Origin: Candidatus Eiseniibacteriota bacterium
Lineage (GTDB): Bacteria > Arandabacterota > Arandabacteria > Arandabacterales > Arandabacteraceae
DNA: 26,170 bases
Assembly: GCA_043810925.1 (NCBI GenBank)
Contig: JBDRNT010000119.1
Span: 1 to 26,170, forward strand
Reading direction: 5' to 3'
Under the pieces are notes generated by a model. That model had not been told where the DNA came from, made no database searches, and saw nothing but the letters and a program-made list of their open reading frames with translations. A program made the translations under genes and the position numbers. This document shows, piece by piece, positions 1,882-15,319 of the stretch; the first letter of the stretch is position 1, and every line of letters begins with the position of its first letter.

Positions 1882-2919
1882 CTAGAAGAACCAGTCTACG
1901 CAGAGCGTATAGACGGAGTACCTTTCGGGGTCTTCGCGGCGTACCCAGTCAAGAGAGATGCGAAGCGGCGGGGCATCATTCCTCAGTTTTCCGATCGGAA
2001 GACCAAAACCGAGTCCATAGGTTGTCTCACCGACCCAATCGTCGTTGCCCTCCACCTCCGACCTGTTCTCGTAATAGTATCCTGTTCTGAGGGCAAGCAA
2101 CTCGAGCAGGCTGACCTCACCGCCAATCTTGTAGGCATCAAAGTAATCCGAGTTAAGAACATCCTGGTATTCGAGATGGCAGAGAAGTCCCAAAGTCCTC
2201 AGTCTTTCATGCCAGGAGCGATGTGCCAACGATATCCGGTAGGCAGTACCAATGCGAAGCGTTACGGGCAGACTCTCATCACCGGCCGCGGTCACCACGT
2301 CGGAGTTGGTGAAATTCGAAAGGCTGCCTCCCATGGACACTCGGTGTTGGGTATGGCCCGACCCGCCCCGGCGAAACACTTTGAGAATCCCGACATCGGG
2401 ATAATAACTGTTTTCGTCCTGCCCGCCGGCACTTGATCTGAGGAGATTCAGATTCATACCGATATAGAGATGGGCTGCCGGAGCTGCGGCGAGAGTAAGA
2501 GTGTAGGTAGAACTCTTCGATGGATAGGTCACCTGCCGCCGGCCTGGATGCACGGTCTGAGTGCTGTAGTCTAAGTGATACCGGCTGAAACCGACTCCGA
2601 CATACCTGCCGACGGGGATCCCCACACCAAAGAACGAACGGTCGGCACGATCGACGGCATAGCGGTCATCAGAGAAGGAAGTGCAGAAGGTGAGCCCGAT
2701 CGCATCGGCGAGCCCGGCGGGGTTGTTGATGCTGCTGAGGATATCTCCACTTAACGCAACGGTGCCCCGGCCCAGGGCTTCGCCCCTGGCGGACGGTTGC
2801 CTTCCGAAGAAGTTCTCTTCGAATGCACCTCCGTACTTGCACATTGCATCGGAGCTACTCAATATGACACCGATCACGACGACCAGTGCCTTTACCAGTC
2901 TAACTGACAGGCATATCAC
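1882..2919 (-). CDS. PorV/PorQ-family (UPF0164-like) outer-membrane beta-barrel protein
   Basis: Signal-like N-terminus, SAR..ALG...VA..D.....NPAGL motif, LP.TLRIG and G.E...L..LALR.GY motifs, C-terminal aromatic residue (WFF). Start codon uncertain. Confidence 0.75.
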   Translation of the reverse strand: MICLSVRLVKALVVVIGVILSSSDAMCKYGGAFEENFFGRQPSARGEALGRGTVALSGDILSSINNPAGLADAIGLTFCTSFSDDRYAVDRADRSFFGVGIPVGRYVGVGFSRYHLDYSTQTVHPGRRQVTYPSKSSTYTLTLAAAPAAHLYIGMNLNLLRSSAGGQDENSYYPDVGILKVFRRGGSGHTQHRVSMGGSLSNFTNSDVVTAAGDESLPVTLRIGTAYRISLAHRSWHERLRTLGLLCHLEYQDVLNSDYFDAYKIGGEVSLLELLALRTGYYYENRSEVEGNDDWVGETTYGLGFGLPIGKLRNDAPPLRISLDWVRREDPERYSVYTLCVDWFF

Positions 2920-3025
2920 CTTCTTTCTTGGTGCAGGACTGACCCGCGGATACTATACAGGACCCGGGAAGTCAAATCACTCAGGTTGTGTACAGTATCC
3001 GCAGGCTCCTGTTCATCCACCGGTC

Positions 3026-3397
3026 TTAGCGAACGCCCACGGTGTCCGTTCCAGTGAACTCGACTCCGTCCTTGGTGCTTCCGAGGAGAGTAAGGGTCGC
3101 CTCGGGGGGTTCGATGATGGCCTTGATTTCTTCCAGATCGAACTTGGCTACAAGGTTACCCTTTGCATCGGCTTTTGTCCAGGCTACCGGGACATCATTG
3201 AGGCTCAGGGTGGATGTGTCAACCAGACCAAGTGCGATGTCGGTATGGACGGTCACCCATTCACCTACTGAACCGAGGGCGATTGTGCTGGGAGATACCT
3301 TGATATCGATAGTCGACGCGGAGCCCGCAGTGCTCGCAGTCAAAACCAGCCCAATCATGATACAGATAACAGACAAACAGACAGTGAAGCGTTTCAT
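3026..3397 (-). CDS. Small secreted beta-rich hypothetical protein (123 aa)
   Basis: Start moved from 3451 to ATG 3397 (GGAGG SD, signal peptide MKRFTVCLSVICIMIGLVLTA). Mature part IDIKVSPSTIALGS...LVAKFD...LTL.G...DG..F.GTDTV is Ig-like. Confidence 0.75.
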   Translation of the reverse strand: MKRFTVCLSVICIMIGLVLTASTAGSASTIDIKVSPSTIALGSVGEWVTVHTDIALGLVDTSTLSLNDVPVAWTKADAKGNLVAKFDLEEIKAIIEPPEATLTLLGSTKDGVEFTGTDTVGVR

Positions 3398-3541
3398 TCC
3401 AACCTCCGTAGACTTTTTGATCACCAGTTGCCAGCGTCCCATCCTCGCCATTTTAAGGTCATGTGCCGTCGTCTACCGGGTCACCTCCTCTTTCGTAAAT
3501 TTGACCTTTCATCTCGTTAGACAGCGTCGGGTTTAAATACA

Positions 3542-3610
3542 AATTCGGTGACAGTCTGCTAATCCATAGCACATGCCGTGCCATGGAAATTAGTAAACTG
3601 TCACCGAATT
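3542..3610. repeat. 69-bp near-palindrome / long hairpin (REP/REPIN- or MITE-like)
   Basis: AATTCGGTGACAGT (3542-3555) pairs perfectly with ACTGTCACCGAATT (3597-3610) and extends to 20/22 bp. Inner stem TCCATAGCAC/GTGCCATGGA (9/10) surrounds a 5-nt loop. Confidence 0.85.
3568..3583 (-). promoter_or_regulatory. Putative sigma54 (-24/-12) promoter for 3026..3397
   Basis: Minus strand TGGCACGGCATGTGCT has exact GG-N10-GC spacing and one mismatch to TGGCAC-N5-TTGCW. Confidence 0.55.
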
Positions 3611-3622
3611 AAGGGCAAATGC

Positions 3623-3646
3623 AAAAAGGGCCCCGAGGGGCCCCTT
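3623..3646 (-). terminator. Rho-independent terminator of the RRM gene
   Basis: Minus strand AAGGGGCCCCTCGGGGCCCTTTTT: GC stem plus U-tract, about 55 nt after the stop. Confidence 0.75.
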
Positions 3647-3700
3647 CGTATTTGGCTCCTGTCACACTTCTACTGTGACAGAATCATACTGCGACAAAAC

Positions 3701-3997
3701 CTACCAGTTATTCCGGCTACCGGACATTCTCCCGCGATCGCGCGACTTGCTGTTGTCACGAGGACGTGCCTCGTTGACGTTGAGGGCGCGACCCTTCAGG
3801 TCCATGCCGTTGATCGCTTCGATAGCTGCTCTGCCCTCATCATCCTTGGGCATCTCAACGAAGCCGAACCCGCGGGAACGACCGGTAAACTTGTCACTGA
3901 TGACATTGGCACTTGCCACTTCACCGTGGGCCTCAAACGCCTGCTTGAGATCGTCCTCGGTGACTTCGTACGATAGGTTGCCAACATAAATATTCAT
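3701..3997 (-). CDS. RRM (RNP-1) RNA-binding protein
   Basis: MNIYVGNLSY (RNP2), RSRGFGFVEM (RNP1), LNVNEARPR. AGGAG SD. Confidence 0.95.
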   Translation of the reverse strand: MNIYVGNLSYEVTEDDLKQAFEAHGEVASANVISDKFTGRSRGFGFVEMPKDDEGRAAIEAINGMDLKGRALNVNEARPRDNSKSRDRGRMSGSRNNW

Positions 3998-4438
3998 TCT
4001 AGTCTCCTATTACTGACACTGAACAGTTTTTACTGGGATTCGACTTGAGCGTGCCTGGACGGGTTATTCAGCCGCATCAGATGACACCAGCAGGCCTTAA
4101 GTTCTTCCGAGCGCAGATCTGTTCGCCTTAGTTCGATTAGTACTACTTCCTTCCTTATTCCTTTTTAAAACTTCCACTCCTCCAGATCCGAACCTTCTCA
4201 CCTCCACGCCTTCGAAAATCTGGTCGATACTTCCGTTCGCGGCTGATTCACTCACAGCCAGCCTTCTGGTTTCACCTAAAAGGCACGAAGACTGTGAATG
4301 CTGGAACTTAATAGGTGTATCGGCATAAGTCAAGCGGAAAAGAGGAATTCGTGGACTGTGAGAAATCGGTGGCGCCCGGAAGTGAGATAATGGCATAATA
4401 GAGCAGGACTTAGGTCGATACTTGAGGCGGGCAAGATA

Positions 4439-5284
4439 ATGTGTGAATTCTGCCTAAAGCATGGGGAAGGGAAGAAGTGGTACCTTGAGGCCAAGAACTA
4501 CTCTGAAGATCTCTTAAGCGATATCAGGCGCCGGAGGATGATTGAGGAGTTCTTCACGAACCCCGGATCACTCGGCCAGGACGTCATGCGTCTCGGCCAA
4601 CTGGAAAAGGCTCCGGCCTTCGTCAGGGGGTTGGTGAAGCGGATCATCACAAGGCGTCAGAAGAAGGAGCACTTCGGACAGGTGGTGCCGATTGAGGAAG
4701 TCGAGCAGATATTTGGCTTTCTCGGTTCCATTGTACGCGTAGCATGTATCTGCAGGCACATCACACTTGGCGAGGAGAAGCGGTACTGCTATGGGATCAG
4801 TCTCGCCCCCGATGGCGGCAAGATGATGGAGATCCTCCGTGGAATCGACGACAGTTTCCTTACGGGGCCGGATGATACCGGATTCGAAACACTTACCAAG
4901 GATGAGGCCATCGCTGCCTTTCGCAGCCACGAACACGACGGTCTCTGCCACACCGTGTGGACTTTCCAGGCGCCCTTTATCGGAGGGATATGCAACTGTG
5001 ACCGCTCGGACTGTCTCGCGATGAAGACCACCGTCACGCACGATCTCCCGGTGATGTTCCGTGCCGAGTATGTCGCCGAGGTGGACCCGGAGAAGTGTGT
5101 CGGGTGCCGGCAGTGTATGCGGGTCTGCCAGTTTGGTGCCGTCACTTACAGCCCCTCGAACGAGAAGGCTGTCATAGACCAGAAATGGTGTTATGGCTGC
5201 GGAATCTGTCGCGCCGTATGCAAGAAAGACGCAATCGAGCTCAAGGACCGTTCCCGGGTTCCTGTGGCTGCAAACCTCTGGTAG
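4439..5284 (+). CDS. 4Fe-4S dicluster (ferredoxin) domain protein
   Basis: C-terminal CVGCRQCMRVCQ and CYGCGICRAVCK motifs. Additional Cys motifs MCEFC, CICR and ICNC...C. Confidence 0.88.
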   Translation: MCEFCLKHGEGKKWYLEAKNYSEDLLSDIRRRRMIEEFFTNPGSLGQDVMRLGQLEKAPAFVRGLVKRIITRRQKKEHFGQVVPIEEVEQIFGFLGSIVRVACICRHITLGEEKRYCYGISLAPDGGKMMEILRGIDDSFLTGPDDTGFETLTKDEAIAAFRSHEHDGLCHTVWTFQAPFIGGICNCDRSDCLAMKTTVTHDLPVMFRAEYVAEVDPEKCVGCRQCMRVCQFGAVTYSPSNEKAVIDQKWCYGCGICRAVCKKDAIELKDRSRVPVAANLW

Positions 5285-6422
5285 CAGCCAGGGCAGCCAG
5301 GGCTTCGCGAAGAACGGCGGCCGCCGAGATCGCAAGGCCTGCATGGCCTAGATAGCCGTAGCGCATGAACAGTCTCGACTCCAATACCACATAGGGCGCA
5401 ACTGCTGTGAGGAAGAACAAGGATCCAAAGATTACTATCCGGCCTGATTGGGAATACCGGTTTCTTGAACCAGGATAGCGCAGGAAGAACACCACGACCA
5501 CAGCCACGATAAGCCCGAATCCTGCCTTGACAAGACCTGTTGCAGCCGCTCCGGCAATCCCCGGCACCATCACAATGCTCTCAAGCCTGAATGATAGCGA
5601 GTTGAAGAAGGTGAGTAGATACGTTGCGCCGCCCTCGAGCAGATGTGACAATGAGAAGTTGTATGAAAAGCCGGTCGGTTGGTGACTGGTGACTCTCCGG
5701 AAGAAGAACGCGAAAAGGATCACCCAGACACCGCCCGCAACAAGGGGAGCGAGATAGTGACGCCAACCACCCCGTTCGCCAAAGAGCCACCAGTAGATTA
5801 TGAAAATTGCCGGCAATACGAGGGAGGTCTCTTTGCTGAATAGAGCCAGAACGAATGCAATTAAGGCTGCCCATACGAGCCAGTTGCGCTTCAGCCGTCT
5901 TCCCCGAATGAAGAGATTGAGAGCCACAAGCGAAAAGAAGACAGCGAGGAGTGTCTGGATCTCACATGTATTGAGTACGACCTCGACGTGAGAGAAGCGC
6001 GAAACAAAGATCCCGGCTGCGACAAGCGCCCACACCCTCGGCAGAAAGACCATGCATACGAGGTAGAGCAGGAGTCCGTTGACAAGACAGACCCCAACAT
6101 TGATGAGATGGTGGATGCCGACATTGTTCGAGAAAAGCTTACGGCCGAGGTAGTAATAGAGATTGGTTGTCAGTGGTCTGTAGAGGCCCGGCCAGACCGG
6201 CGGACTCGTGAAGCAGTCTCCGAGCGAGTGAATGGTGGCAGCGTTGTGTTTGATGAATATCCCGTCCTCCCATTGATATGTGGAGTAGTTGGCGATCACT
6301 CGCCTCCCGTGCACAGCAGAAAAGGCAGTGAGTACGACAAGAAGGGCGATCACAAGGTGATATCTGGATATGAACCCGCTCCCACTTTGATGATCCGGTT
6401 TGAGTCTGCGGCGCGCTTTCAC
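5241..6422 (-). CDS. Polytopic membrane protein, GT-C/ArnT-PMT-like glycosyltransferase family
   Basis: ED motif in the first loop, YRPL motif, H..N...C..N..L.Y, ALFSKE motif, RY.Y motif, about 10 TM segments. The GTG start overlaps the upstream TGA. Confidence 0.7.
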   Translation of the reverse strand: MKARRRLKPDHQSGSGFISRYHLVIALLVVLTAFSAVHGRRVIANYSTYQWEDGIFIKHNAATIHSLGDCFTSPPVWPGLYRPLTTNLYYYLGRKLFSNNVGIHHLINVGVCLVNGLLLYLVCMVFLPRVWALVAAGIFVSRFSHVEVVLNTCEIQTLLAVFFSLVALNLFIRGRRLKRNWLVWAALIAFVLALFSKETSLVLPAIFIIYWWLFGERGGWRHYLAPLVAGGVWVILFAFFFRRVTSHQPTGFSYNFSLSHLLEGGATYLLTFFNSLSFRLESIVMVPGIAGAAATGLVKAGFGLIVAVVVVFFLRYPGSRNRYSQSGRIVIFGSLFFLTAVAPYVVLESRLFMRYGYLGHAGLAISAAAVLREALAALAATRGLQPQEPGNGP

Positions 6423-8293
6423 AGTTTGCCCTCATCCCTGAGTTGCTTCAAAATCCTGTCAACGTCCTCCGCCATCTCCTCTGGCGGATTCAGCCGCTTA
6501 AGATACAGCAGCTCTTCGGCTCCTTCTTCGATCCGCCCCAGGGCTATGAGCATCTTCCCGTAGAAAGCATGGAACACTGGGTTGTCCGGATGATACTCCG
6601 TCCCCTCGCGGGCGAGATCGAATAGTTCTTCATAGTGCTGCGACCGGAATAGAATCAGAGCCATCTCGGAACGGACTCTCTCGTTGAGTGGTTCATGCTC
6701 AAGTACCGGCCGGAGCATTCCCGCGGCATTGACCAGCTGCCCATCGTCCCTGTAATAGACACTGAGGAGAATGTAGAGCCGGGAGTTATAGGAAAAAGAA
6801 ACCGCTTTTTCCATAGCGGTAATTGCCTCTTTCAGACGATGGCCATCGTGGTATTGCTTGGCCAGTGTTTCATATGCATACTGCCCGAATGTCGTATCAT
6901 AGGAGAGAATGCTCTCGTAGCGCCTTGTTGACTTTTCCTCTGATGAGTTGATACCGATCCATGACACGGCCAGGGCAGCGCTCATTACGATTACCGGGGT
7001 AGTGACGAGTGATAGAGCGGATCTGCGACATCGTGACAGGAAACGTTTAGCCATGAGCATTGCAAGCGAAATCAGCCCAACTGACGTGATAGTGAAGAGA
7101 TCCCAATCTCTTGCCATCCCGAGTTTAGGGTCGAAGACCATGAGAAATAGAAGGCAAGGTACCAGCAAGTGTAGAGCGAAATGCTCTTCCACATACCTCC
7201 TGGACCTCATGAGGGCGACGGTCATGAATACAAAGACGGGAAACATAGGAAGGAGGAGCAGAAGCTCATTGAACACATCCAACCAGTGAGACGATGAAAG
7301 AATCCCGGTGCTCCCGGCAGAAGCTCTGACTGGAAGCAGGTGTTCGCCTTGCCCGGGAAGCGCCCCTGCCACGTACGTTCCGATGAGAACAAGAGCGATC
7401 AGTAAGGGCGAGACAACTGTGAGAACATGTTTTCGCCGCTTATATGTCAGAAACCAGATGAGAAGGAGCGCGAACGAAGGGGCCAGCAAGATACCCTGGA
7501 TATGCATGAAGGTACCTAAGACGAGACAGGCCAGGGCCGCGAAAAGCCAGGTTGCGCACTTCCGCTGGATCAGGATGAAACCGCTTACCGCATAGAGAAC
7601 TGCAAAGAGCATGAGCGCGGTGTAATTTTCCACGTAGCCGAAGAAGAGCTCAATTGTACCCGAAGTGAGTGCTACTGTTGCCAGCCAGCTCTTGAACGGG
7701 ATACGCATGAACACAAGAACCAGAATGCCGCCAAGCAGACAATTGAGGATTCTCATTGCCTTCAAGGGCGGCCAAGAGAATACCGTGAAAGAGGCCTTGG
7801 TGAACCAGTAGTAGAGCAAAGTCGCTCCCTTTGCTATAGATTCACCCTTGAGTATCCACAGTGGGTTGTTTGTCACCATAGTCGTATCACTGAGGAAGGT
7901 ATGCTTGAAGTTGTCCGCGACGAGCTTGCCGTCACCAAGGAGCAGCGTGGATGACTGGAATCCGACGAAGATCGTCGTCGCGACGATAGCTATAATGATG
8001 GAAACCCACACGACGCGCCTGCTGTGTGCTGCGAGGCGCTCGATACCGGCCTTAAGGAGTGAATTGAGCCCGCGCGCGACCCCCGGCACGAACGACAGGG
8101 CGATGAGTCCCAGTGTTCCAAGGCGGATGGGGACGGGGTAGAACGCCAGATGGTTGATCCCCCACAAGCGCTTGTCGGGGAGAAACGATGCGACAGCGAC
8201 GAGTGCAAATGTGAAAGCGAGCGGAACATACAGGATCTGTGCGGAGAGAGGATGCTCAGACTCACCGGGTTGATGTCCGGACGGCCGGCTCAT
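6419..8293 (-). CDS. Multi-TM membrane protein with C-terminal TPR repeats
   Basis: LLGDG, FFGYVENY and LGMARDWDL motifs, many TM helices, TPR-like helical repeats in the last ~170 aa. Confidence 0.8.
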   Translation of the reverse strand: MSRPSGHQPGESEHPLSAQILYVPLAFTFALVAVASFLPDKRLWGINHLAFYPVPIRLGTLGLIALSFVPGVARGLNSLLKAGIERLAAHSRRVVWVSIIIAIVATTIFVGFQSSTLLLGDGKLVADNFKHTFLSDTTMVTNNPLWILKGESIAKGATLLYYWFTKASFTVFSWPPLKAMRILNCLLGGILVLVFMRIPFKSWLATVALTSGTIELFFGYVENYTALMLFAVLYAVSGFILIQRKCATWLFAALACLVLGTFMHIQGILLAPSFALLLIWFLTYKRRKHVLTVVSPLLIALVLIGTYVAGALPGQGEHLLPVRASAGSTGILSSSHWLDVFNELLLLLPMFPVFVFMTVALMRSRRYVEEHFALHLLVPCLLFLMVFDPKLGMARDWDLFTITSVGLISLAMLMAKRFLSRCRRSALSLVTTPVIVMSAALAVSWIGINSSEEKSTRRYESILSYDTTFGQYAYETLAKQYHDGHRLKEAITAMEKAVSFSYNSRLYILLSVYYRDDGQLVNAAGMLRPVLEHEPLNERVRSEMALILFRSQHYEELFDLAREGTEYHPDNPVFHAFYGKMLIALGRIEEGAEELLYLKRLNPPEEMAEDVDRILKQLRDEGKL

Positions 8294-8873: not shown

Positions 8874-9323
8874 CTAGAGATCTACGAGGGTGATGCCCCG
8901 GTTCAATCTGTCCGACCGCAAAGAGTCCTTGAGAACGGGGTGGGCAATCATGAGGTCGCGTGCTCTGTCAGATAGTTCAGAGTAATCCTCACCGGGATGA
9001 AAGCCTTTGATTTGTCCCTGGCGCTCCAGCCGTATGAGATACTTGTGAGTTGCCTTCTTTATCTTGCCGCCGCTTCCAGTGGAACCCCATCCGTGAATGA
9101 TCCTGACAATCTTAGTGCCGCCACTGCGTGCGGTCTCAAGCCTTACAGCGAGCCGGCGCACGGCCTCGGCCGCCGTCGGCAGGTCCGATTTGAGGTTCAC
9201 GGTCGTAAGACGTTGCGCCCTTTTCTTCCTCCGGGGGGTAGAGGCTGCCAGGAAGCTCTTACAGTAGGGGCACTTCGACACCTCATCCTCTATATCATTG
9301 CCGCATATCTCGCATATCTTCAT
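8874..9323 (-). CDS. Smr/MutS2 C-terminal domain protein with N-terminal zinc ribbon
   Basis: CEIC...CPYC zinc ribbon, Smr signature RIIHGWGSTGSGGKIK and N.G.T.V. Starts 8 nt after the stop of the upstream gene. Confidence 0.85.
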   Translation of the reverse strand: MKICEICGNDIEDEVSKCPYCKSFLAASTPRRKKRAQRLTTVNLKSDLPTAAEAVRRLAVRLETARSGGTKIVRIIHGWGSTGSGGKIKKATHKYLIRLERQGQIKGFHPGEDYSELSDRARDLMIAHPVLKDSLRSDRLNRGITLVDL

Positions 9324-9331
9324 CTGAGAGC

Positions 9332-11386
9332 CTAGCGCAGGAGAACGGCTCGGCGGGTCTGGCGTCCCGCCGGGGTGGAGATCTCTATGAAGTAAACTCC
9401 ACTTGCGGCCTTGTGGCCGGACTCATCCATCCCGTCCCAGGCGGCAATGCACTCACCCGGGCCCCGTTCACCGGCATCCAGAACCCGGACCAGGCGACCT
9501 GCCGGACCGTAAACGGCGAGCCGCACCCGGGTCCTCGCCGCCAACCAGAACCGGACATCAGTTGCGGGTTGGAATGGATTGGGTGCGGGTGGTGAAAGCC
9601 GGATGTCTGCCTGGCTTGTGGGGGTGTCATGGGAAGGTCCGTCGCCCGGGACTCCGGCCAACTCAAGCAGCGAATCGATTGTTGCGATGATGACCTGCGG
9701 ATCGTATTCCCACGACCAGTATCTGATGATGCCACCCTGATCGATCACATAATCCTGTGGATAGGGCATCTGTGGACTCTCCGGATAAGGAACACGGTAA
9801 GCGTTATAGACCGTGTTTCCCACGTCTTCAAGAGCCAGGAAGCCCATGCCGAAAACATCGCGGAACTTCTCTATTATGGGGAAGTCCCGCGCAACCTGAA
9901 AAACTGCTACATCCGCCGAATCATAGCGTGAGTAAATCGCAGCGTCCGTCGCTGCAGCCTGCAGCGGCACGACTGGTCACCAGCACGCACCGAACTCAAG
10001 GAATACGACCTTCCCACGGTAGTCGGAGAGACTGTGCATCACACTATCGAGGCCCAGCAGTGTGAAGTCCGGCGCCTCCACGCCAACGCCAAGAAACGTC
10101 GTGCTGTTCTTGTATACATGCTGGACGGACTGGGGCTCGTCCGGGTCGTTGGAAATGTAGAGAATCCCACCGCGGACCGTGCCTGCTCCGGAAGCCGTCA
10201 CGGTGACGGGTTGAGTCAGCCCGGGTCCGAGTGAGAATGTCTGAGGACTGAGTGATATGCCGGTCGGGGCCCAGGTGGAGTCGACGGTGAGTGTACCGGC
10301 CCCGTTATTCCTGATGAAGACCGTCGTGTCCCGCGGTGTAGCGCCCACGGGTCCGAAGTCGAGTCTAAGGGGATAGACGTCAATGTCTCCGCCGAGATCG
10401 GGCCTCGGAAGATAAACGCCCATACCTTGCCAATCCGCCACAGCGATCACGGTGTCGCCGCTTGAGATAACACCGACGTCTGCCCCGAGGGCCCAGAGGT
10501 GCGTAGCATCCCAGCCGACGAGGCTGATGTCGCCTGGGTCACCGATGTCGAAACGCTCGAGGTAAGTGTACGAACCGACGGCGAGTATGTCACCGACCGC
10601 CCCCATTGAGAAGGCATTGCCCATTGTCGGTGCCCTGTCAAGCAGCACAGGATGAGTCGGATCTGAGATATCGACCGAAGCGATTCCTTCTGCCGCCAGT
10701 GATAGAAAGACCGAAGTGCCGGAGACAATGATGTCATTCGCAAGACCCGGCAGCGAGAGCGTAGCAACCTCACCTGGTCCACCTGCAAGATCGACCACCG
10801 AAACCCCAAACCGCCCATTCGCTACAAACAGATACCCACCCGCCTCGGTGATATTCCAGCATGCGTTATCCGCAAGTGGAAGCTCGGAGACAAAGGTGGG
10901 ACCACCGGGTGAACCTATGTCGAGTACGTGAATACCCAGCTGGTGTGCAGCCACATAGAGCAGGCTTCCGACAGCCACCCCTCCTTCATAGAAGACATCC
11001 GGGTCGGGCGGATCGTACGAGCCAAGAAGCGCAGGAGTCCCCGCTGATATGTCAAACATCTGAATACCCATGTCGTGACAGAAAGTGAAGAGGGTGTCAT
11101 TCCGTGACCATCCTCTCCAGCTGGGAACACCACCGCGTGAAACACGTGTGGGATTGGCTGGATCGGCTATGTAGTAAGTCTCTAAGCCGGAATCATAACC
11201 GTTCAGGCAGTATGCATAATCCCCTACGATGTGGAAGTGCATTAGATGCGCATACTGGATATCGTTCCTGCCCACCAGGCGCATCCCGTCTATGCCGTCC
11301 TGGGCGTGGACCGGGGTCAGCGCCCCCAGGATACCGGCTAGCGCGAGCAGGAGGATGCTTGCTGGCCTCGGTGCAGGAACGAACAT
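9332..11386 (-). CDS. Predicted secreted selenoprotein (~684 aa): signal peptide, LVIVD repeats, Ig-like (ASH/choice-of-anchor D-like) domain, Sec-containing TlpA/AhpC-TSA redoxin, FlgD-Ig/T9SS C-terminal sorting domain
   Basis: ORFs 9977..11596 and 9332..9970 share a frame and are separated by one TGA (9977-9979) in APDFTL...SLSDYRGKVVFLEFGACW-U-PV. The rest of the thioredoxin fold (..LED....YNAY.V...P..YVID.GGIIRY) follows, and a SECIS-like hairpin lies downstream. Start ATG 11386 has a GGGGAG SD and a signal peptide ending VHA|Q. Confidence 0.88.
9944..9973 (-). promoter_or_regulatory. Bacterial SECIS element (selenocysteine insertion hairpin)
   Basis: UGA CCA GUCGUGC CGCUGCA GGC UGCAGCG ACG GAC: perfect 7-bp upper stem, G-led apical loop starting 17 nt after the UGA, bulged lower stem. 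Confidence 0.8.
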
Positions 11387-11428
11387 GGTATGTACTCCCC
11401 GGCTGTGCCGGCTGCCTGCGAAAGATCT

Positions 11429-11457
11429 AGTATACCACACCTGAAGGCATTTGTCAT
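11429..11457 (-). promoter_or_regulatory. Putative sigma70 promoter of the selenoprotein gene
   Basis: Minus strand ATGACA-17 nt-TATACT with a TG extended -10. It lies about 42 nt upstream of ATG 11386, supporting that start over 11596. Confidence 0.55.
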
Positions 11458-11692
11458 CAGGCAACACCGCGCTATGGTGTAACGTATTGTGCGCGGAATC
11501 CGTGGGAAGGGGTTGAGACATGGTGCCGTTCCGCATGAGGCCGGCCAAACGTATTCTGCATGGAACTCCGGGTTTCAGAGGTGCACAGAGCATCACGCGC
11601 GGGTTGGGGTGCGCGTGTCCCGAGGTTGCTTCCTTAGCCTATCTTGTGTGGCTGCACAGCATAACCTGAGTCTGCTGCTTCGCGGCCCGTCG

Positions 11693-12560: not shown

Positions 12561-12670
12561 CGTCGCCGCTGAGGGCGTGTAACCCCTACAATCAGATGGA
12601 CTTATACGCGGTGGCCTACCCTAAGGATTTGCTCGCAATAGCGCCTGGATTATGGTATAATGAATCTGAG

Positions 12671-15319
12671 ATGCGTGCTATGACACAGTCGCTGAAAGGC
12701 TTCAAAGTACCGATGCTCATGCTGGTTTTCGGGCTGGCGTTCGCACTTGGCGTCCAGGACGCCGGGGCGGCACCGGCCGACAGCGTGGGACCGGCATTCC
12801 ATATCGGAGCGAACCCGGTCTACGGTTCGCCTATGGCGAACCAGTTTAACCCCGCGGTGGCCTCTGATGGGACCGATTACCTGGTCGTGTGGGACGACCA
12901 GCGGAACACCCTGGACTTCGACATTTATGGCGCACGGGTGGCCGCGGACGGGACGGTCCTTGACGAGGTGGGTATAGCCGCCTGCATAGCTGTGGAGGAT
13001 CAAAAAGAACCCGCGATCGCTTTTGATGGTACGAACTACCTGGTGGTCTGGACGGACGAGCGAAACGGCTCGGCCGATATCTATGGAAGCCGTATGGGCT
13101 CGGACGGCCAGGTGCTCGATCCCGACGGCATTCTCATATCCGCTGCCTCAAGCGCCCAGTCAAGCCCGGCAGTCGCGTTCGGGGATACGGCCTACTTCGT
13201 AACATGGACCGACTGGCGCGACGGGAACGCGAACATCTATGCGGCACGAGTGGCCCTTGACGGTACCGTGCTTGATACATCCGGAGTTATGGTGTCGGCT
13301 GCCGTGGCCGAACAGGAGTTCCCGGCCGTCAGCTTTGACGGCACAGGCTGGCTTGTCGTATGGCATGACTCCCGCAGCGGGCAGGCCGATATCTATGGGA
13401 GCCGTGTGGCCCTTGACGGTACTGTGCTTGATTCAAGCGGTATCGTGGTCTCCGCATCGGTCACCGAAGAGCTTAATGCGGACATAACATTTAACGGCAC
13501 AAACTACCTTGTGGTCTGGGATGATGAACCGGGTGCGACCTCGCGCGATGTATACGCCGCCCGCGTAGCCCCCGACGGTACTGTGCTTGATCCTGCCGGG
13601 ATTCCCGTGTGTACGGTTGCCAACCAGCAGGAGTTTGCCGCCGCCAGTTCGGATGGCTCGAATTACCTGGTCACCTGGATTGATTTCCGCGGTGGTGGGA
13701 CCTGGGATGCATACGGGGCGCGCGTGGATGCAGCAGGCAATGTGATTGATGTCGCTTCACTGCCTATCTGTACCGATCCCAGCCAGCAGTACGCGGTAGA
13801 TCCGGCCTTTAACGGCACAAACTGGCTTGTGGCCTGGCACGACAGCAGGAACGGGCCCAAAGACATATATGGAACACGGGTCGCCACCGACGGAAGCGGT
13901 GTGGACCCGGCGGCCTTCCCCATATCCACAGCGGCAGCTTACCAGTCCCACCCGGAACTCGCCTTCGACGGCGGCAATTACCTTGCCGTCTGGCACGAGT
14001 GGAGAAGCGCTACGGGTTATGATATCCGTGGGGTACGTGTCGCCGCTGACGGTACGGTGCTTGATCCGGGCGGAATCGTAATATCGGCGCGAACAACCGA
14101 TGAGTTGGACCCTGCGGTTTCTTTTGATGGAACCAACTACCTGGTTGTCTGGCAGGATGAACGTAGCGGCTCGTTTGACATCTATGCCGCCAGGATCGAT
14201 ATCGACGGAAACGTGCTTAACCCCTCCGGGATTGCCCTATCGGCAACCGCAGACCAGGAGGAGTACCCGGCCGTTGCCTTTGACGGCACCAATTACTTCG
14301 TCTCGTGGCAGGATAACCGCAACGGCATCTACACCGATATCTATGGAACGCGCCTTACCGTCACGGGCACGGTACTCGACCCGGCCGGCATAGCGGTATC
14401 GGATGCAAACCGCAACCAGGGACAGCCCGCCGTGAGCTTCGATGGCACGAACTACCTGGTTGTCTGGCAGGATGCGCGGAATGTCTACAATGATATCTAT
14501 GGCACCCGGGTTACGACCGGTGGGACTGTGCTTGACGGCGCAGGCATCCCGATATCGAGTGCGTCGCTGGCCCAGGAATACCCGGCGCTGGCCTTCGATG
14601 GGACGAACTATGTCGTTGCCTGGCAGGATAAGCGCGCCAGCTCCAACTATAACATCTACCTGTCACGAGTGGGTACGGACGGGACCGTGCTTGACCCTGC
14701 AGGAATACTCGCTTCAGGCGCCGCCGGCGACCAGATCTACCCGGCCATAGCATTCGATCAGAGGAACTACCTCGTCGTCTGGCAGGACGGACGCTCGTCC
14801 GCCGGCTACGACATATACGGGACCGATGTTGATCCGGACGGAAGCGTACTCGATCCATCCGGCATTGCTGTTTCCACGGCCGACCATGACCAGGCGGTCC
14901 CCGCCGTGTGTTCTTCATCCTATGGGCTGGTTCTTACAGCATATGCATCACTAACCGCCCCTCCCGACTATGGGATTCACCGCATATGGGCGAACTTCTA
15001 CGACGTCCGGGCCGGGATCACGCATGAGGATGACGGTCGCGAGTGTGCGCGGCTTCTTGATGGTTTTCCCAACCCATCGAGAGGACCGGTGACGCTTAGG
15101 TTCTCTCTCTCAGAACGTCAACGGGTATCACTGAGGGTCTATGATGTCGAAGGTCGACTCGTTGAGACCCTGCTTGATGGGTTCTGTGAAGCAGGAGCGC
15201 GCGACATCGGATGGGACGGCGGATCTCCATGCGGCAGGCCTGTCGCACCCGGACTTTATTTCTGTCGCTTGCAGACAGGTGTTTCACTTCAGACTATAAA
15301 GATCATGCGGCTCCGCTGA
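12671..15319 (+). CDS. Secreted repeat protein (13 full + 1 degenerate ~52-aa repeats, probable beta-propellers) with FlgD-Ig/T9SS type A sorting domain
   Basis: Repeat consensus Q..PAVAFDGTNYLVVW.D.R.G..DIYG.RV..DGTVLDP.GI.IS. C-terminal FPNPS...LRVYDVEGRLV..L...WDG...V.PGLYF.RL. Signal peptide present. A TGGTATAAT at 12653-12661 argues for a start at 12671/12680 rather than 12596. Confidence 0.88.
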   Translation: MRAMTQSLKGFKVPMLMLVFGLAFALGVQDAGAAPADSVGPAFHIGANPVYGSPMANQFNPAVASDGTDYLVVWDDQRNTLDFDIYGARVAADGTVLDEVGIAACIAVEDQKEPAIAFDGTNYLVVWTDERNGSADIYGSRMGSDGQVLDPDGILISAASSAQSSPAVAFGDTAYFVTWTDWRDGNANIYAARVALDGTVLDTSGVMVSAAVAEQEFPAVSFDGTGWLVVWHDSRSGQADIYGSRVALDGTVLDSSGIVVSASVTEELNADITFNGTNYLVVWDDEPGATSRDVYAARVAPDGTVLDPAGIPVCTVANQQEFAAASSDGSNYLVTWIDFRGGGTWDAYGARVDAAGNVIDVASLPICTDPSQQYAVDPAFNGTNWLVAWHDSRNGPKDIYGTRVATDGSGVDPAAFPISTAAAYQSHPELAFDGGNYLAVWHEWRSATGYDIRGVRVAADGTVLDPGGIVISARTTDELDPAVSFDGTNYLVVWQDERSGSFDIYAARIDIDGNVLNPSGIALSATADQEEYPAVAFDGTNYFVSWQDNRNGIYTDIYGTRLTVTGTVLDPAGIAVSDANRNQGQPAVSFDGTNYLVVWQDARNVYNDIYGTRVTTGGTVLDGAGIPISSASLAQEYPALAFDGTNYVVAWQDKRASSNYNIYLSRVGTDGTVLDPAGILASGAAGDQIYPAIAFDQRNYLVVWQDGRSSAGYDIYGTDVDPDGSVLDPSGIAVSTADHDQAVPAVCSSSYGLVLTAYASLTAPPDYGIHRIWANFYDVRAGITHEDDGRECARLLDGFPNPSRGPVTLRFSLSERQRVSLRVYDVEGRLVETLLDGFCEAGARDIGWDGGSPCGRPVAPGLYFCRLQTGVSLQTIKIMRLR

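Follow-up and report, generated by a model that had tools for sequence, protein, structure and literature searches.

A gene on the minus strand of a 26,170-nt contig from Candidatus Eiseniibacteriota bacterium (GenBank assembly GCA_043810925.1, contig JBDRNT010000119.1; the whole contig is called the window below) is interrupted by an in-frame TGA and most likely encodes one 684-residue exported selenoprotein, with selenocysteine (Sec) in a thioredoxin-like active site. We regard it as highly probable that this is a real selenoprotein gene, and we put the probability of the best explanation as a whole, covering decoding, architecture, export and function, at about 0.85. The protein most likely belongs to an overlooked family with members in several uncultured bacterial phyla. 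An earlier note on this stretch, made from the letters and a list of open reading frames (ORFs), had proposed a Sec-containing redoxin here, and that interpretation is supported as a whole.

We infer Sec insertion at UGA 470 from the conserved UGA, a covarying hairpin, the insertion machinery in the genome and purifying selection downstream. SelB and Sec-tRNA(Sec) would decode this UGA under the guidance of a hairpin beginning 11 nt downstream, and the product would consist of a cleavable signal peptide, a 7-bladed LVIVD propeller, an immunoglobulin (Ig)-like domain, a ResA/TlpA-like redoxin and a C-terminal domain of the FlgD_ig/type IX secretion system (T9SS) type. The protein would cross the inner membrane through the Sec translocon and then be passed by its C-terminal domain to the T9SS, for display on the outer surface or release. 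There the propeller and Ig domains would hold a substrate or partner, and the selenol would carry out thiol/selenol-disulfide exchange.

Proposed decoding of the in-frame UGA

In the ORF listing the gene appears as two minus-strand ORFs of the same frame, 9977..11596 and 9332..9970. The single TGA dividing them had been placed at 9977-9979 in the earlier note, and the coordinates proved right, with the minus strand as the coding one; a plus-strand reading of 9332-11386 was rejected, as it holds stops throughout. Read from 11386 to 9332, one frame is broken by this codon (9979-9977) in GKVVFLEFGACW-U-PVV. When 11596..9332 is translated with TGA as U, the codon at 9979-9977 is the sole internal TGA, in the context ...SLSDYRGKVVFLEFGACW-U-PVVPLQAAATD..., and the read-through product has the C terminus ...PNPFQPATD...AAWDGMDESGHKAASGVYFIEIS...AVLLR, followed by the stop TAG. 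From ATG 11386 the product has 684 residues and Sec is residue 470, in agreement with the length (~684 aa) and the Sec position (470) first proposed. The gene caller uses this ATG as well, and its protein for the window, P0005 (469 aa), ends at the TGA. In the genome assembly (G000; 185 contigs, 91.7% complete) the window is contig C119. Against L041, the orthologue in a sister species of the same genus (G001), the gene aligns without gaps over 684 of 684 codons, at 84% identity.

In a locus scan with one genome per species, propeller and redoxin were found encoded together at 17 loci (L041-L057). Their identity to the window protein runs from 84% down to about 26%; Gemmatimonadota, Candidatus Eisenbacteria, WOR-3, Calditrichota, Fibrobacteraceae or just 'bacterium' appear in the titles of their records. 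The codon at the aligned Sec column is TGA in all 17, and because the same TGA recurs across independent assemblies, a sequencing error in the window, which the earlier note had raised as an objection, is excluded. Past the TGA the frame stays open for ~205-215 codons; it is longer in L052 and L057, and in L051 it ends with the contig. Among 18 genomes of the phylum, only G000 and G001 carry the gene.

Predicted proteins of the family bear the imprint of the same codon. Among the best 50 family members in the protein collection, 49 end exactly at ...FG..W (one of the 49 at ...ACS), because gene callers stop at the same TGA; that standard callers would split the gene, as the earlier note expected, is what P0005 and these 49 proteins display. 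Similarly, 13 single-stretch matches among representatives of 50%-identity clusters stop at query residue 467-469; query residues 475-684 are matched by a separate protein of 203 residues. Public annotation cuts the family at the Sec codon in 49 of the 50 clusters, those named by their source are called 'hypothetical protein', and the redoxin half and the sorting domain are invisible in databases because the annotation ends there.

The ratio of nonsynonymous to synonymous substitution rates (dN/dS) relative to L041 was 0.103 before the TGA (469 codons) and 0.148 after it (214 codons), with values of 0.112 for the remainder of the redoxin domain and 0.141 for the C-terminal domain; the other two frames downstream of the TGA contain 5-9 stops. 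The search for Sec machinery that the earlier note had suggested found all of its components in G000, above curated cut-offs: a tRNA-Sec (74.2 bits against a cut-off of 47; ARAGORN anticodon tca), selA (587 bits), selB (376 bits) and two copies of selD. One selD copy (G000:C89:56288-57423; L001, L019) contains a TGA in its frame and is immediately followed by the tRNA-Sec gene; the second match (G000:C38:32076-32999; L018) lies inside a 738-residue open frame and may be a fusion.

Downstream of the UGA, a hairpin resembling a selenocysteine insertion sequence (SECIS), presumably of the Escherichia coli fdhF type, is conserved in position and pairing. All 18 sequences can be aligned over the 71 nt surrounding the TGA with no gap, and the 7-bp helix (columns 20-26 with 30-36 of alignment A2) is paired in 84.9% of cells, against 16.7-50.8% in slid-partner controls. 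Both-sided changes occur in 4 of the 7 pairs (24 cells), and the covariation score of the helix was reached by 0 of 500 shuffles; examples of compensation are U-A to C-G in L048 and L049 and G-C to U-A in the group of L050-L053 and L057. L054-L056 break the register of the helix, with the hairpin shifted by one base and a GGUC loop. In 8 of 8 folded sequences the apical loops (GGC, GAGUUNU and GGUC) lie at equal distance from the UGA, and a G-containing apical loop is found about 18-20 nt after it. An Rfam scan of 9700-10200 returned just two chance-level matches, a miRNA and a snoRNA.

Domains, redox centre and proposed export

The read-through product has a Pfam AhpC-TSA domain at residues 434-556 (504-626 of P0001; E 1.7e-15, 57.5 bits, cut-off 26), which therefore spans the TGA. 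LVIVD (PF08309) is matched in the N-terminal half (26 bits, cut-off 20.2) and FlgD_ig at the C terminus (39 bits, cut-off 27). An AlphaFold2 model of the full-length protein, built from 19 family sequences, has a mean predicted local distance difference test score (pLDDT) of 84.6 and a predicted template modeling score (pTM) of 0.75. It consists of a helix (9-21), 28 strands (36-326), a beta-sandwich (335-426), a thioredoxin fold (442-576), a disordered linker (578-593) and a second beta-sandwich (595-682). This is the domain order that the earlier note had proposed, and its redoxin fold running across the TGA is borne out by both the Pfam match and the fold model. The Ig-like domain has a weak choice-of-anchor D match and a HYDIN/VesB-like Ig match (E 0.0025) below the cut-off. 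In a Foldseek search the best PDB match of the whole model is PorZ, followed by generic propellers, which dominate. The redoxin domain modelled by itself (pLDDT 83.7) best matches ResA 1su9, with a template modeling (TM) score of 0.83 normalised to the target and a root mean square deviation (rmsd) of 2.4; further matches are 4nmu (a Bacillus thiol-disulfide oxidoreductase), 2ls5, the DsbE-like 3gl3 and Etrx2 (4hqz/2yp6), with Bcp- and AhpE-type peroxiredoxins ranked slightly lower. No NCBIfam model reaches its cut-off for the full-length protein, the redoxin domain or the C-terminal domain.

U470 aligns under the first Cys of A-S-W-C-x-x-C in 2ls5, 3hdc and 4hqs, which supports the earlier placement of Sec at the catalytic Cys site of TlpA/ResA-like proteins; Sec would stand in place of the nucleophilic first Cys of WCxxC. 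Across the 18 sequences of the family alignment the Sec column, the Pro after it and Pro541 are invariant, the last being what we take to be the cis-Pro position of the thioredoxin fold. The motif U-P-x-C (x = I, V, L or A) is found in 16 of the 17 related loci. The window protein and L041 have U-P-V-V, with a Cys at -2 (C-W-U). Besides this residue, Cys468, the window's redoxin domain contains no Cys; the closest relatives of the window protein (P0005-P0008 and P0026) end at ..GACW or ..GACS. A FastTree phylogeny of the redoxin domain places the window and L041 together (support 1.0) inside the U-P-x-C sequences, and the C-x-U state is therefore derived: in this genus, and in no other, CxU with UxxV has taken the place of UxxC. 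Cys468 probably took over as the resolving partner and would form a Cys468-Sec470 selenenylsulfide. The table of a recent review gives CxU motifs for other selenoprotein families (PMC13188914).

A redoxin-domain profile run against longer proteins identified five Cys-form clusters (P0227-P0230 and P0232; 697-725 aa) with the motif G-T-W-C-P-A-C, in which Pfam places LVIVD, redoxin and Por_Secre_tail domains in the same order as in the window protein. When P0228 is aligned with the Sec paralogue of G001 (Y-G-S-W-U-P-A-C), Cys lies under Sec, and the identity is 41% over 632 residues; with the window protein the identity is 28% over 494 residues, and the Sec column is again aligned to Cys. These Cys forms make up a distant subfamily (L054-L056 type); the subfamily of the window protein itself yielded no Cys form among the best 50 proteins and the 17 loci. 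Homologues with TGA or Cys at this column, for which the earlier note had proposed a search, accordingly exist (TGA in all 17 loci, Cys in five distant full-length proteins), with the one departure that P0004, discussed below, has Ser.

Two further groups were observed in these searches. L056 (G001:C132, gene 2497-4722) is a second Sec paralogue in G001, 32% identical and with W-U-P-A-C; no paralogue of the L056 type was found with the window query in G000 (genome 91.7% complete). P0223-P0226 (966-1005 aa), the top scorers against the redoxin profile, contain several thioredoxin-, redoxin- and GSHPx-type Pfam domains and look like tandem arrays of TlpA-like domains.

As regards export, the N terminus, read by eye, has the pattern of a Sec-type signal peptide (Arg7, a hydrophobic core and V-H-A before Q). 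The C-terminal domain gives weak matches to the C-terminal regions of PorZ, PorU and M6-like cargo models, and domains of its type end many ORFs in G000 and related genomes. The T9SS gene search in G000 covered SprA, PorU and PorV; SprA (541.8 bits summed, cut-off 200) and PorU (526.6 bits, cut-off 420) were found above their cut-offs. At least 44 other ORF ends in G000 match the C-terminal part of the PorU model, and four places, on contigs C120, C146, C156 and C173, are common to these matches and to those of the window's C-terminal domain. From these similarities T9SS cargo is the best reading of the window protein and a fairly probable one, and surface export would follow the route outlined above. 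The earlier note went further and made secretion dependent on selenium, an idea that appears only partly sound: a product without Sec insertion lacks the sorting domain and keeps the signal peptide, and therefore could still reach the periplasm.

Divergent from the selenoprotein gene in the window, a 907-residue ORF (12596-15319, plus strand) has a C-terminal FlgD_ig domain, a weak Por_Secre_tail match and DUF3659-like repeats, and probably represents a further T9SS cargo. At the G001 locus L041, a DUF3659 ORF is found on the same side.

Alternative explanations and known relatives

Were the TGA a true stop, the result of nonsense mutation, pseudogene formation or assembly error, the gene would yield just a 469-residue propeller-Ig fragment, and the downstream frame would be a relic or a separate gene from GTG 9970. 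Gene callers do annotate it in this way (GenBank has a relative of 457 aa under the name 'hypothetical protein'), the ORF 9332..9970 with its GTG start exists, and TGA is a normal terminator elsewhere in the window. We nevertheless consider a true stop very improbable, given the same TGA in 17 independent assemblies down to 26% identity, the downstream dN/dS of 0.148 with stops in both other frames, a redoxin fold that would be cut mid-domain, a downstream piece that has no signal peptide of its own, and Cys forms that are continuous proteins. Equally improbable in our view is that the UGA is read through as Trp, Cys or Gly, by near-cognate decoding or a reassigned code, and not as Sec. Low-level UGA read-through occurs in bacteria, and the inserted residue cannot be read from the frame alone, but TGA terminates 7 of the 17 window ORFs examined and is in-frame in 0 of the other 16, and the G001 orthologue itself ends with TGA. 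Against a standard residue stand also the complete Sec system in the genome, the covarying hairpin at SECIS distance and the column itself, which is that of the catalytic Cys of the fold and is occupied by Cys in relatives without the TGA.

Two other explanations accept a selenoprotein and differ in where it resides or what it does. It might be kept in the periplasm or on the inner face of the outer membrane as a ResA/TlpA/CcmG-like reductant, the C-terminal domain being plain Ig-like. The closest solved folds are indeed periplasmic or extracytoplasmic reductants (ResA, DsbE-like), both TIGR04183 and Por_Secre_tail fall below their cut-offs, and the Gemmatimonadota relatives L046 and L047, which retain the Sec codon, have a different C terminus without an FlgD_ig-type domain (their frames are open far upstream of the propeller). 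This explanation is nonetheless unlikely beside SprA and PorU above cut-off in the genome, the 44 or more other ORF ends that match the C-terminal part of the PorU model, the four places on the contigs named above that these matches have in common with those of the window's C-terminal domain, the Pfam Por_Secre_tail domain on the Cys-form relatives, and PorZ, a T9SS surface component, as the best match of the whole model. Somewhat less likely again is a redoxin domain without enzymatic function, in which the selenol would bind or sense a soft metal, a metalloid or sulfur species on a surface adhesin-like scaffold. It would accommodate the loss of the CxxC-type pair in the window clade (UPVV), the retention of the whole protein with Ser-x-x-Ser in P0004, the metal-binding selenoproteins listed in the review table (PMC13188914), and the beta-helix/NosD-like genes found directly downstream in 4 of the 17 loci (L041, L043, L044 and L045), together with the 999-residue P0164, which carries PF07602 and NosD-type (PF05048) domains N-terminal to LVIVD. 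Yet U-P-x-C is kept in 16 of the 17 loci and Pro541 in 18 of 18 sequences, as in catalytic thiol:disulfide oxidoreductases, and the clade that lost the +3 Cys is the very one with a Cys at -2, a coincidence that points to maintenance of a redox pair. The best account of the sequence evidence is a surface or periplasmic thiol/selenol-disulfide oxidoreductase, its substrate held by the propeller and Ig domains; for the window protein in particular, a catalytic role as an oxidoreductase seems somewhat favoured.

Several results weigh against our account of an exported, catalytic selenoprotein. The fold energy of the window hairpin is no better than that of shuffles (z -0.20 and -0.68), and the case for the hairpin therefore rests on comparative covariation; among seven relatives, single-sequence folds were significant in L042 (z -3.61) and L049 (z -3.07), L056 had z -1.29, and 4 of the 7 were not significant. 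The search of sequencing runs gave no RNA run and one DNA run (word share 0.15), whose three 151-nt contigs do not extend over the TGA. The T9SS-type sorting domain of the earlier note has in its favour FlgD_ig above its cut-off and SprA and PorU in the genome; on the other side, the C-terminal domain scores 19.1 bits against a cut-off of 23 for TIGR04183 and 13 bits against 27 for Pfam Por_Secre_tail (PF18962), and the PorV-like gene directly adjoining PorU in G000 reaches 89.8 bits, below its cut-off of 250. Reductants of the ResA/DsbE type are recycled by inner-membrane CcdA/DsbD, beyond the reach of an outer-surface protein, a point that favours a periplasmic location. No conserved gene for a redox partner or reductant was found near the gene (18 ORFs in the window; 70 ORFs at the 17 loci). 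UxxC, the defining motif of the known selenoprotein family, is absent from the window protein. Finally, P0004 (630 aa, from a 2344-nt Logan contig, 56% identical), 1 of the 50 family proteins, is continuous through F-G-S-S-A-S-P-I-S, which puts Ser both in the Sec column and at +3 and lacks the Trp; loss of the redox centre is therefore compatible with retention of the remainder of the protein. P0004 may represent a lineage that lost its redox centre, or a contig error.

The majority of prokaryotic selenoproteins, whether known or predicted, are redox proteins with a single domain. A 'Prx-like thiol:disulfide oxidoreductase, PF00578, UxxC/UxxU' was predicted with high confidence in a 2026 review of the prokaryotic selenoproteome, whose table also holds a 'Redoxin family protein, PF08534, UxxC', a 'Thiol-disulfide isomerase-like, cd02966, UxxC', a UGC-type TlpA protein and some membrane and outer-membrane selenoproteins (PMC13188914). 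At the domain level the window redoxin is therefore of a known kind. It shares with the Prx-like PF00578 UxxC selenoproteins an AhpC-TSA match above cut-off and Sec at the first CxxC-type position, and 16 of its 17 relatives have U-P-x-C; it differs in being the fourth module of a 684-residue exported protein and in its C-W-U-P-V-V. The earlier note knew of no characterised selenoprotein with this architecture, a statement that holds in that none was found in the literature and needs the qualification that the redoxin domain is of a selenoprotein kind already predicted. No report of a selenocysteine protein with an LVIVD, T9SS or C-terminal sorting domain was found in open-access full texts and bioRxiv, although supplement lists may already hold members, and the passages of the review concerned contain no selenoprotein with the propeller-Ig-redoxin-sorting architecture (PMC13188914).

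The redoxin shares with ResA, TlpA and DsbE proteins (1su9, 4nmu and 3gl3) the fold (TM 0.79-0.83 normalised to target, rmsd 2.4-2.7), the nucleophile after Trp at the start of helix 1 and an invariant Pro at the usual cis-Pro position. In contrast, those proteins are membrane-anchored or periplasmic Cys enzymes of about 140-180 residues, the window protein has no second Cys at +3, and it scores below cut-off for the NCBIfam models of the ResA subfamily (45.7 against 170) and TlpA (13.7 against 230). Selenoproteins of the peroxiredoxin type (TxxC/TxxU) are further removed: A-C-W precedes U in the window, there is no Thr at -3, U stands under the first and not the second Cys of CxxC, and the NCBIfam PrxU model gives 15.9 against a cut-off of 270. 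Etrx2 of Streptococcus pneumoniae (4hqz, 2yp6), which has a role in extracellular oxidative-stress resistance, likewise places a TlpA-like fold outside the cytoplasmic membrane and is among the top structure and sequence matches, but it is a monoderm lipoprotein with Cys and no propeller. The Cys-form relatives P0227-P0230 and P0232, called 'thiol-disulfide isomerase/thioredoxin' by one source, match the window protein in the order of LVIVD, redoxin and sorting domain and differ in W-C-P-A-C, in the Pfam Por_Secre_tail domain and in their distance as a subfamily. PorZ (5m11) has a beta-propeller followed by a C-terminal beta-sandwich, and its NCBIfam model matches the C-terminal domain weakly; at TM 0.28-0.30 and 10% identity, it has neither a redoxin domain nor Sec.

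What is new is the multidomain exported architecture, the position of the sorting domain after the Sec codon, the breadth of a family truncated in databases and the C-x-U rearrangement, to which may be added the apparent absence of Cys forms, as far as found, from the main subfamily. In that subfamily only Sec-encoding genes were found, one Ser form apart, and one genus has rebuilt U-x-x-C to C-x-U; this switch offers a natural experiment on relocating the resolving partner of a selenol. Tentatively, at somewhat less than even odds, we propose that diderm bacteria of several mostly uncultured phyla display on their outer surface the first recognised selenoenzyme family among T9SS cargo, a TlpA-like selenol oxidoreductase tethered to a propeller. 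If it is, selenium chemistry would take place outside the cell, on propeller-captured substrates and without cytoplasmic reductants, and a surface-displayed selenoenzyme would widen the range of places in which selenium biochemistry is thought to act.

Features and neighbourhood of the gene

The coordinates of the gene and its parts are collected in Table 1.

Table 1. Position of the selenoprotein gene, its predicted signals and the domains of its product in the window
Feature	Position	Strand	Evidence and remarks
Selenoprotein gene, whole	9332..11386	-	ATG 11386; in-frame TGA 9979-9977; TAG 9334-9332; 684 residues
Shine-Dalgarno-like GGGGAG, 8 nt before ATG	11395..11400	-	Read from the 40 nt upstream; presumed function
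Predicted signal peptide, residues 1-28 (MFVPAPRPASILLLALAGILGALTPVHA before QD)	11303..11386	-	Read by eye; model helix 9-21, low pLDDT over 1-28; hydrophobic N termini in relatives
Predicted seven-bladed LVIVD beta-propeller, residues 36-326	10409..11281	-	PF08309; 28 model strands in seven four-stranded blades, mostly pLDDT 87-96; Foldseek propellers
Predicted Ig-like beta-sandwich, residues 335-426	10109..10384	-	Model strands; weak matches only
Predicted ResA/TlpA-like thioredoxin-fold domain (AhpC-TSA), residues 434-576, with Cys468, Sec470 and Pro541	9659..10087	-	Pfam; alignments; model; ResA 1su9
Cys468 codon (TGC), two residues before Sec	9983..9985	-	Only in the genus-level clade in which the usual +3 Cys is Val
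UGA predicted to be read as selenocysteine, residue 470	9977..9979	-	Frame; 17/17 loci; protein ends; Cys counterparts
SECIS-like hairpin	9940..9975	-	Apical helix 9966-9950 (CGCUGCA GGC UGCAGCG); the minimum free energy fold extends the lower stem to 9975 and 9940
Predicted C-terminal beta-sandwich sorting domain, residues 595-684, after linker 578-593	9335..9604	-	FlgD_ig; TIGR04183 below cut-off; model

In the window, a small Smr-domain ORF (8874-9323, minus strand) lies 8 nt downstream of the selenoprotein gene; a beta-helix/NosD-like gene is found there instead in G001. In the protein encoded at L057 (2953-6102), ~370 additional residues separate the redoxin from the C-terminal domain, and the gene is directly followed by a Ni-superoxide dismutase gene (6282-6770). 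In L053 and L057 alike, the gene is preceded by one for a protein-isoaspartate methyltransferase, and L048 has a Bcp-like gene nearby.

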